64,000 bases of DNA, from the IMG/VR virus record IMGVR_UViG_3300045988_147305; one strand, given 5' to 3'. The stretch's first letter is position 1; each line of letters begins with the position of its first letter. The position numbers were made by a program, and so were the translations under genes. Of the stretch, positions 26,913 to 27,501 are shown piece by piece. Source of the stretch: a virus (Duplodnaviria > Heunggongvirae > Uroviricota > Caudoviricetes). A model generated the notes under the pieces. It worked only from the letters and a program-made list of their open reading frames with translations, was not told the DNA's origin and did no database searches.

Positions 26913-27164
26913 TTAGTTACCGCTAATAGCTCGGTTGTAATCATTAACGTTGCGATTCTTCCTGTTAATCCCCATCAGCATCGTTTCTGTATCAAGGATA
27001 TAGGCTGGCAGATCATCAAAATATTCACTGCTAAACTCTGGCATCCTGCACATAAATGCACTTTTGGGGGCAGGGTGATTAACCTTTGTCGGCGTCGGCG
27101 TTAAATTCGCTGATCGACTCCCGGAGCAACCGCTGAGTGTCAGCAGGAATACGCTGGCGAACAT
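26913..27164 (-). CDS. Outer-membrane lipoprotein, o-spanin-like (mlp position)
   Basis: Signal peptide with lipobox LTLSGC, Pro/Thr-rich mature region; start overlaps the end of the upstream gene in another frame. Confidence 0.5.
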   Translation of the reverse strand: MFASVFLLTLSGCSGSRSANLTPTPTKVNHPAPKSAFMCRMPEFSSEYFDDLPAYILDTETMLMGINRKNRNVNDYNRAISGN

Positions 27165-27501
27165 TACCCGCCGCAACCAGTTGTTTCTGAACTTCAGCTT
27201 TTCGTTCCATTTGCCTGTCAGCATACTTGGCTTGTTCTGATTCATTTTTCACTTCCTGGCTGTGAAAATGTTGCTCTGCTTTGTTCATCGTCTCAATGGT
27301 CTGGTTAAGATCCTTTATTGACTTATCACGTTCCTTAACAGCCTGATCAAGACTGCCAATTTTCTCGATGGCTTGCTTTAGCTGATGACGTTCCCATACA
27401 AACCCAGCACCAACAAGTGCGCAAATCAGAACAAGAACACCAGTAGCAGCAAGTTTCTCCTTCAAAGACAAAGCTGTTTTTAATGTAGAAAAGAATGACA
27501 T
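27079..27501 (-). CDS. Type II membrane coiled-coil protein, i-spanin-like (ppfA position)
   Basis: N-terminal TM helix ATGVLVLICALVGAGFVW followed by a charged coiled-coil region; 3' end overlaps the lipoprotein gene. Confidence 0.5.
   Translation of the reverse strand: MSFFSTLKTALSLKEKLAATGVLVLICALVGAGFVWERHQLKQAIEKIGSLDQAVKERDKSIKDLNQTIETMNKAEQHFHSQEVKNESEQAKYADRQMERKAEVQKQLVAAGNVRQRIPADTQRLLRESISEFNADADKG

Follow-up and report, generated by a model that had tools for sequence, protein, structure and literature searches.

The ppfA-mlp Locus

The DNA under study, referred to here as the window, is the whole analyzed stretch of 64,000 nucleotides from the IMG/VR virus record IMGVR_UViG_3300045988_147305 (Caudoviricetes). 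It is collinear with phage P1 from ~37.1 to 94.7 kb of the P1 genome, save for a few replaced or inserted stretches, and is therefore a P1-like plasmid prophage. The subject of this work is a pair of overlapping genes in this prophage, ppfA and mlp, which are predicted to encode the inner-membrane (i-spanin) and outer-membrane (o-spanin) subunits of a two-component spanin (Table 1). The 1-kb region containing the pair is 98.6% identical at the nucleotide level to positions 63140-64141 of P1, where both genes are annotated: ppfA for a "possible periplasmic function" and mlp as a "membrane lipoprotein precursor", with the RefSeq entry for mlp reading "Rz-like spanin". Mlp is 100% identical to P1 Mlp, and PpfA is identical at 138 of 140 residues, the two substitutions (A35V and M63K) being conservative. 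The locus is also the same as in P1 in its 167-nt overlap, its Shine-Dalgarno sites and its neighbors (upfC, upfB, upfA and oriR/repA). Near-identity and the gene order upfC-upfB-ppfA-mlp-upfA beside the replicon mark the two genes as the orthologues of the P1 pair.

The first base of the ppfA start codon is position 27501 on the minus strand, as verified by a check of the open reading frame (ORF) and its coordinates, and the Shine-Dalgarno site in front of it is identical to the one given in SpaninDB for the P1 protein gp064. The Kyte-Doolittle profile of PpfA reaches its 19-residue maximum (2.48) at residues 17-35, and a transmembrane helix is placed at about residues 17-36. Three lysines (K8, K14 and K16) form a basic N-terminus on the N-terminal side of this helix, and the part that follows the helix is charged and periplasmic. 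In the AlphaFold2 model, with a mean predicted local distance difference test (pLDDT) of 71, a long helix spans residues 13-110 and a second one residues 120-139, with a break at 111-119 between them. PpfA thereby shows the predicted topology of an i-spanin, namely a single N-terminal transmembrane helix, an N-in/C-out orientation and a mainly alpha-helical periplasmic domain. Its one cysteine is located inside the transmembrane helix, leaving none in the periplasm.

The stop codon of mlp ends at position 26913 on the minus strand. In the Mlp precursor, the n-region is long and basic and is followed by a hydrophobic core and the lipobox L-S-G-C. Cys40, predicted to be lipidated, would be residue 1 after maturation, and the serine at position +2 (Ser41), which is not an aspartate, predicts sorting to the outer membrane. 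The sequence, thus, carries the signal peptidase II lipobox with its cysteine, and no +2 aspartate, as looked for in an o-spanin. Mature Mlp contains six prolines, four of them within TPTPTKVNHPAP, and is moderately proline-rich near its N-terminus. Besides Cys40, it has a single periplasmic cysteine, Cys66, which is kept in 5/5 lineages examined. In 507 of 528 known spanin systems, at least one periplasmic cysteine is present in either subunit, for an intermolecular disulfide; in the present pair, it is supplied by Mlp Cys66. By analogy, this residue could provide the disulfide of a homodimer, on which most spanins depend.

When the entire P1 genome was scanned for lipoboxes, mlp gave the sole credible lipoprotein signal. 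As P1 has no other credible lipoprotein gene, there is no rival spanin candidate. The P1 genes plp/upl do not qualify as a second spanin-like pair, since Plp has no credible signal peptide or lipobox.

An earlier note on this DNA had described an overlapping pair at positions 26913-27501. These coordinates are exact, and both genes lie on the minus strand. The N-terminal transmembrane helix that it ascribed to one gene is borne out by the hydropathy profile, the periplasmic coiled coil is in keeping with the predicted helices, and the different frame of the second gene is confirmed. For the "Pro-rich lipoprotein", the lipobox holds, whereas the richness in proline (6 in 71 residues) is only moderate.

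Table 1. Predicted features of the ppfA-mlp locus and its surroundings, in window coordinates.
Feature	Position	Strand	Description and basis
ppfA, i-spanin subunit (predicted)	27079..27501	minus	140-aa ORF; N-in/C-out, one transmembrane helix and a helical periplasmic domain
ppfA Shine-Dalgarno site AGGAGG	27507..27512	minus	strong; upstream sequence CTTCAGGAGGAAGAC-ATG
Transmembrane helix LAATGVLVLICALVGAGFVW	27394..27453	minus	ppfA codons 17-36; Kyte-Doolittle
mlp, o-spanin subunit (predicted)	26913..27245	minus	110-aa precursor, 71-aa mature protein; +1 frame relative to ppfA
Lipobox L-S-G-C	27126..27137	minus	Mlp residues 37-40; pattern match
Dual-coding overlap, 167 nt	27079..27245	minus	ppfA codons 86-140 and mlp codons 1-55
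upfC, leading gene of the block, PAAR-like (resembles T4 gp5.4)	28338..28622	minus	PF05488 PAAR E=1.1e-5, score just under the curated cut-off; phrog_281 E=2.5e-30; P1 annotation note
upfB, upstream gene, 281 aa	27541..28386	minus	counterpart of P1 upfB; phrog_1559 (no assigned function); late RNA-seq kinetics
upfA, last gene of the block, disrupted	26510..26901	minus	1-nt deletion near 26815 relative to P1
Terminator-like hairpin	26481..26497	minus	consensus scan, pattern match only
Candidate degenerate Lpa-type late promoter, AAATAACCT-AAGT-TAAAAT	28655..28673	minus	32 nt before the upfC start; not annotated in P1

Coding Capacity of the Overlapping Frame

In two-component spanins, the o-spanin gene is embedded in the i-spanin gene, overlaps it or lies immediately downstream. 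Here, mlp overlaps ppfA in the +1 frame and runs 166 nt beyond the ppfA stop codon. When ppfA is recoded synonymously, the +1 frame across the overlap remains open in 51% of cases; hence, an open frame alone is uninformative, and the open-frame test was replaced by one of the occurrence of a lipobox by chance and one of the proportions of nonsynonymous (pN) and synonymous (pS) differences. A hydrophobic stretch followed by a lipobox arose in an alternative frame in 68 of 20,000 recodings (0.34%).

The diverged P1-like elements examined are from Cronobacter (phage JK004), Klebsiella aerogenes and Salmonella, with PpfA proteins that are ~60% identical; two further, more distant relatives came from an exhaustive hidden Markov model (HMM) search (profile E-values of 1e-21 and 2e-8). 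In the part of mlp outside the overlap, pN is 0.13-0.18 and pS is 0.70-0.86 against the diverged relatives. The far lower pN than pS indicates that the lipoprotein frame is under purifying selection. Within the overlap, the stronger constraint is on the ppfA frame: pN exceeds pS for the mlp frame, and the Mlp signal peptide is variable. The overlap is the stretch with the greatest nucleotide conservation, being 75-78% identical to the diverged relatives, vs. 60-61% for the part that codes for PpfA only. Relative to P1, eight substitutions are present in the 589 nt of the pair; none falls in the overlap, and 4/4 in the mlp-only part are synonymous.

The overlapped lipoprotein ORF is retained in 5/5 diverged lineages, including the most distant PpfA relatives found. 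The lipobox varies among them (LSAC, LNAC, LNGC or LSSC), and the start position of mlp, the basic n-region, the second cysteine (FMC.MP.F) and the C-terminal INRKN.NVN.YN are kept. The conserved C-terminal motifs of the PpfA/Mlp pair are RQRIPADTQRLLRESISEFNA and DDLPAYILD...INRKNRNVN.YNR. The exhaustive HMM search for PpfA relatives gave 39 hits, among which the only new full-length ones were P0102, P0108 and P0121; in P0102 and P0108, the overlapped lipoprotein ORF was present again. No PpfA relative inside a classical lysis cassette was found among these 39 hits. A tblastn search against phage records and a word-indexed protein search gave matches only in P1-like elements.

Automatic annotation treats the two genes differently. 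In related plasmids (e.g., NZ_CP101616.1, positions 5981-6403), the Prokaryotic Genome Annotation Pipeline (PGAP) calls ppfA and omits the overlapping mlp. In the diverged relatives, gene callers report only the 3' non-overlapping 44-52 codons of mlp. Missed calls of o-spanin genes are a known annotation artefact.

Relationship to Known Spanins

PpfA matches the PHROG family phrog_89, "Rz-like spanin", over nearly its full length (E=7e-25), and this is also the family of P2 LysB (E=5.8e-61). Mlp belongs to a family of its own, phrog_30284 (E=6.5e-79), and matches phrog_456, the family of P2 LysC, with E=2.7e-5. In the opposite direction, P2 LysC matches phrog_456 with E=1.7e-31 and phrog_30284 with E=5e-4. 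A BLASTP alignment of Mlp with P2 LysC shows 37% identity over 68 amino acids (E=1e-7) and pairs the lipobox and the periplasmic cysteine of the two proteins. Lambda Rz and Rz1 fall into phrog_13 and phrog_3198, and PpfA and Mlp match neither of these. Among PDB sequences, no match to the PpfA profile was found. On this profile evidence, the pair appears to be distantly related to the P2 LysB/LysC type and would work like it; it is not, as far as sequence comparison goes, a member of the lambda Rz/Rz1 families.

P2 LysB/LysC is the prototype of the overlapped arrangement, in which the o-spanin gene, in the +1 frame, starts within the i-spanin gene. The dimensions are close: the overlap is 146 nt in P2 lysB/lysC vs. 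167 nt here, the o-spanin overhang is ~145-166 nt, and the proteins have 141 and 96 residues in P2 vs. 140 and 110 here. The n-region of the signal peptide is much longer in Mlp than in LysC, and Mlp has one periplasmic cysteine. The P2 genes directly follow those of the holin Y, the endolysin K and lysA in a lysis cassette, whereas ppfA/mlp are more than 30 kb away from P1 lyz and lydA/B. SpaninDB, moreover, places P1 in a family apart from P2.

Lambda Rz/Rz1, the spanin that has been characterized by experiment, share the predicted topology, with a type II inner-membrane coiled-coil protein and a lipoprotein of the outer membrane whose gene is in the +1 frame. The single cysteine of Mlp is available for a homodimer disulfide like C29 of lambda Rz1. 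However, Rz1 is wholly embedded in Rz, whereas mlp extends past ppfA, and lambda Rz has two periplasmic cysteines, PpfA none. No homology is detectable by BLASTP between PpfA and Rz (E=0.27) or between Mlp and Rz1 (E=0.005, signal peptide only). The earlier note had called the architecture classic Rz/Rz1; the overlap is real, and the lambda label has to give way to the P2 lysB/lysC type. In phage T4, the i-spanin of PseT.3/PseT.2 is also devoid of cysteines in the periplasm, and the o-spanin is of larger size and has a helix predicted at its C-terminus, as here; the T4 genes, in contrast, are separated, not overlapped, and no sequence similarity to the P1 pair was seen.

The predicted spanin pair of P1 was already known. 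In SpaninDB (Kongari et al. 2018, supplementary table), P1 (NC_005856) is listed as an overlapped system with gp064 as i-spanin and gp063 as o-spanin; the finding is, therefore, not new. The sequences, Shine-Dalgarno sites, lipobox and cysteine counts of this entry agree with those of the present pair, and the entry forms a family of its own. The first identification of the P1 pair is attributed to Summer et al. (2007). Bednarek (2022; PMC9025707), citing Summer 2007, names ppfA/mlp as the P1 spanin genes from predicted features, with the o-spanin label given to ppfA and the i-spanin label to mlp. Relative to the topologies predicted from the sequences, these two labels are reversed.

Gene Block, Timing and Promoter

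The pair is part of the block upfC-upfB-ppfA-mlp-upfA, with the early dmt operon on one side and the plasmid replicon on the other. Distant P1-like elements retain this order as well: it was kept in 4/4 lineages whose flanking sequence sufficed for a judgement (the Cronobacter, Klebsiella and Salmonella relatives and one more distant P1-like element).

The timing of expression was read from published RNA sequencing (RNA-seq) data for P1vir in a wild-type host, given as log fold changes (logFC) at 10 and 30 min (PMC8201110, Table S1), which were re-analyzed. The five genes upfC, upfB, ppfA, mlp and upfA have values of 4.1-5.6 at 10 min and 10.5-11.2 at 30 min. For comparison, 35 genes of the annotated Lpa-dependent late operons have a median of 4.2 (range of 0.16-6.05) at 10 min and of 11.0 at 30 min, and 16 C1-controlled early genes have values of 6.6-10.0 at 10 min, with a median of 11.7 at 30 min. 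The values for repA/parA/parB are 7.4/9.5/9.2 at 10 min and 10.2/11.5/11.4 at 30 min. At 10 min, the block is, thus, within the range of the late genes, under all 16 early genes and unlike repA/parA, and both ppfA and mlp fall in the late class. Since these kinetics differ from those of repA/parAB, the adjacency to repA reflects the position on the map, not the function: the pair is a late function that happens to border on the maintenance genes.

In P1, the known lysis genes are scattered over the genome, with lyz/lydD/lydE at 20.0-20.9 kb and lydA/B/C at 30.4-31.5 kb, which accounts for the position of ppfA-mlp (63.4-63.9 kb) beside the replicon. A location in the lysis cassette is usual for spanin genes, not defining, and is not seen here; none of the other lysis genes of P1 is inside the window. 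T4 provides a precedent for spanin genes unlinked to the lysis genes. Regarding the earlier note, its statement that the pair lies beside repA and away from the lysis genes is right as to position, and its assignment to the plasmid-maintenance region is not, as the genes form a separate late-expressed block.

The first gene of this block encodes a PAAR-like protein, UpfC, likely the tip of the tail spike, so that a gene of the virion-spike type and the spanin genes share a single late-expressed block. UpfB contains a Gly/Ser-rich linker; no Pfam family and no PDB sequence match were found for it. In upfA, one T is missing from the alignment with P1, and the frame shifts after ~30 codons, giving a product of 44 amino acids vs. 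130. This deletion is either a pseudogene mutation or a sequencing error. An intact upfA is present in pDC71-1, a closely related plasmid, and in diverged P1-like elements, the gene is absent or replaced by a Gp49-family gene. The hairpin 3' of upfA is likely the end of the transcription unit, before oriR.

A consensus for the -22 box was built from 11 annotated P1 late promoters. The site upstream of upfC has three mismatches to this consensus, and 18 sites with at most three mismatches occur in the 128 kb of both window strands. The box and its TANNAT are found at the same position in three diverged lineages. These features suggest a degenerate Lpa-type promoter before upfC, which would account for the late timing of the genes from upfC to upfA. 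A simple sigma-70 scan found no promoter-like site upstream of ppfA on the minus strand; the P1 record gives only two predicted sigma-70 promoters there, P1ppfA and P2ppfA.

Separately, the C1 operator Odmt (Op68; ATTGCTCTAATAAATAT, plus strand) is situated at positions 28704-28720, in the divergent upfC-uhr intergenic region, ~30 nt upstream of the candidate upfC promoter. It is conserved in all lineages compared.

Proposed Function

The ppfA-mlp pair of this P1-like plasmid prophage is very probably the two-component spanin of the phage. All of the sequence-level features by which such systems are recognized (Summer 2007 and Kongari 2018) are present, which supports this assignment. The possibility raised in the earlier note, that the pair is a two-component spanin and perhaps the one of the phage itself, is thereby strengthened, by the identity with P1 ppfA/mlp, the SpaninDB entry, the LysB/LysC profiles and the late RNA-seq kinetics.

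The mechanism proposed here rests on homology and is carried over from the model for lambda Rz/Rz1. PpfA would be anchored in the inner membrane by its N-terminal helix, with the helical, probably coiled-coil, domain reaching into the periplasm. After its export and lipidation on Cys40, Mlp would be sorted to the outer membrane, where it would probably form a homodimer via Cys66. The conserved C-terminal parts of both proteins may then bind to each other, resulting in complexes that span the periplasm through the meshes of the peptidoglycan and that would be inert (caged) as long as the wall is intact. Late in the infection, the holin or holins (LydA, perhaps LydC and LydD) would trigger the signal-anchor-release (SAR) endolysin Lyz, leading to degradation of the wall. 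The freed complexes could then fuse the inner and outer membranes, by which lysis would be completed.

Several observations weigh against the assignment as a spanin. Bednarek (2022) states that the function of ppfA/mlp is without experimental verification. The signal peptide of Mlp, with 39 amino acids, is unusually long; SpaninDB remarks "Too long signal sequence" for the P1 o-spanin, listing a LipoP cleavage site at 39 and no PROSITE hit, the latter because of the long n-region. For Mlp, AlphaFold2 gave a low-confidence model (pLDDT of 58), which was used as a hint only. Direct comparison of PpfA with P2 LysB or lambda Rz, by BLASTP and by hhalign with shallow profiles, was not significant, and the link between PpfA and LysB is made by a PHROG profile, and P1 PpfA itself may be among the sequences aligned in it. 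A Pfam scan of PpfA and Mlp gave no family above the threshold, Rz and Rz1 included, and, for PpfA, coiled-coil noise only. Upstream of the block, no canonical Lpa late promoter (at most two mismatches) was found, and none is annotated in the P1 record. Lastly, in a genome-wide CRISPR interference (CRISPRi) screen, ppfA and mlp were non-essential for plaque formation, with efficiencies of plating of 1.3/1.2 for ppfA and 0.24/0.19 for mlp. The same study warns of polarity artefacts, and its call of lambda Rz as "essential" may be such a polarity effect.

The last point deserves comment, as it also bears on the alternatives. The CRISPRi result is weak evidence against a spanin, since spanin defects are mild in the laboratory. 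Mutants in spanin genes generally have mild laboratory phenotypes, and plaque assays are insensitive to the defect.

A first alternative is that the pair serves an envelope function of the plasmid prophage, for instance in superinfection exclusion, in remodelling of the envelope or in connection with maintenance, and that the lysogen expresses it from sigma-70 promoters predicted inside upfB. It would fit the location, with oriR/repA ~700 bp away and lyz and lydA/B at a great distance (20-31 kb in P1, outside the window), the annotation of predicted sigma-70 promoters and of no late promoter upstream, the empty result of the strict late-promoter scan and the knock-down without a plaque defect. 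Yet, both proteins are tied to the P2 LysB/LysC spanin families, and the kinetics resemble those of lyz and the structural genes instead of repA/parAB. The sigma-70 scan upstream of ppfA was itself negative, the PAAR-like gene at the head of the block suggests a virion part, and the spanin genes of T4 are scattered as well. A role in plasmid maintenance, or another membrane role, has no positive support, and this alternative is considered improbable.

Given similarly little credence is the idea that the pair is a relic, no longer needed by P1 because the outer membrane would be broken otherwise, by the SAR endolysin with the several holin-like proteins or by an unrecognized protein of the disruptin type. 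An efficiency of plating near 1 after CRISPRi on ppfA or mlp would agree with it, as would the unusually complex lysis set of P1 (Lyz, LydA, LydB, LydC, LydD and LydE). Against it, purifying selection is strong on both genes across distant P1-like elements, and Mlp is identical to that of P1 while the adjacent upfA has decayed in the window; the plating result, moreover, comes from an assay that is insensitive to spanin loss, in a screen where the lambda Rz call perhaps reflects polarity.

That ppfA alone is real, the +1 lipoprotein frame being a by-product of its sequence joined to a chance downstream ORF, could draw on the openness of that frame in recodings, the excess of pN over pS for mlp within the overlap and the PGAP calls, and is hardly credible given the rarity of a chance hydrophobic core with lipobox, the elements of Mlp retained in five lineages, the low pN of the mlp-only half, the homology of Mlp to P2 LysC and the known skipping of o-spanins by annotation.

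Beyond the assignment as the phage spanin, two extensions can be envisaged. An unannotated degenerate Lpa-type promoter may drive the spanin block, coupling the PAAR-like spike gene and the spanins, or the pair may have a second, non-lytic role in the lysogen. Such an extension is rather unlikely at present. The second role, if true, would explain both the dispensability for plaques and the position by the replicon.

Other Regions of the Window

The replicon adjacent to the block differs from that of P1, with a different RepB-type initiator and a GIY-YIG nuclease gene in place of repA/incA. It extends over positions 24119-26372, without a megablast match to P1 repA/incA. The initiator ORF, of the RepB/Rep3 family, is at 25291-26232, and the GIY-YIG nuclease gene, located by correspondence with plasmid pDC71-1, is at ~24189-24998, where P1 has the incA iterons. 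In E. coli, Salmonella and Shigella, a replicon of this type is carried by ~400 plasmids, with sizes of 91-113 kb.

Other stretches also diverge from P1. Positions 15028-16219, without a megablast match to P1, replace the rlfA/rlfB region, which is associated with lytic replication. A 6.5-kb stretch at 49314-55875, between the equivalents of pmgT and pmgU, is absent from P1; it carries two Ead/Ea22-like proteins, a DUF551 protein and several ORFs without a family match. Two further predicted lipoproteins are encoded in the window, both on the plus strand. The one at 34210-35037, in a stretch replacing the P1 tciA-tciC region, has 275 amino acids, an SPFH/Band 7 domain and the signal MKKTLISAAIILGSLCLTGC. 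The other, at 56290-56562, is a small ORF of 90 amino acids without a family match, in a region divergent from P1.

Significance

As a textbook spanin that can be recognized by its gene arrangement and membrane signals, the pair carries little weight as a discovery. What is added here is the link of both subunits, at the profile level, to P2 LysB/LysC, together with the analysis of selection, the reading of late kinetics from published RNA-seq and the candidate promoter. In practice, automatic annotation misses mlp in hundreds of P1-like plasmids, and the i-/o-spanin labels are swapped in one recent paper. P1 is a workhorse phage, and the late-kinetics evidence and the candidate promoter would help in the design of a spanin experiment.

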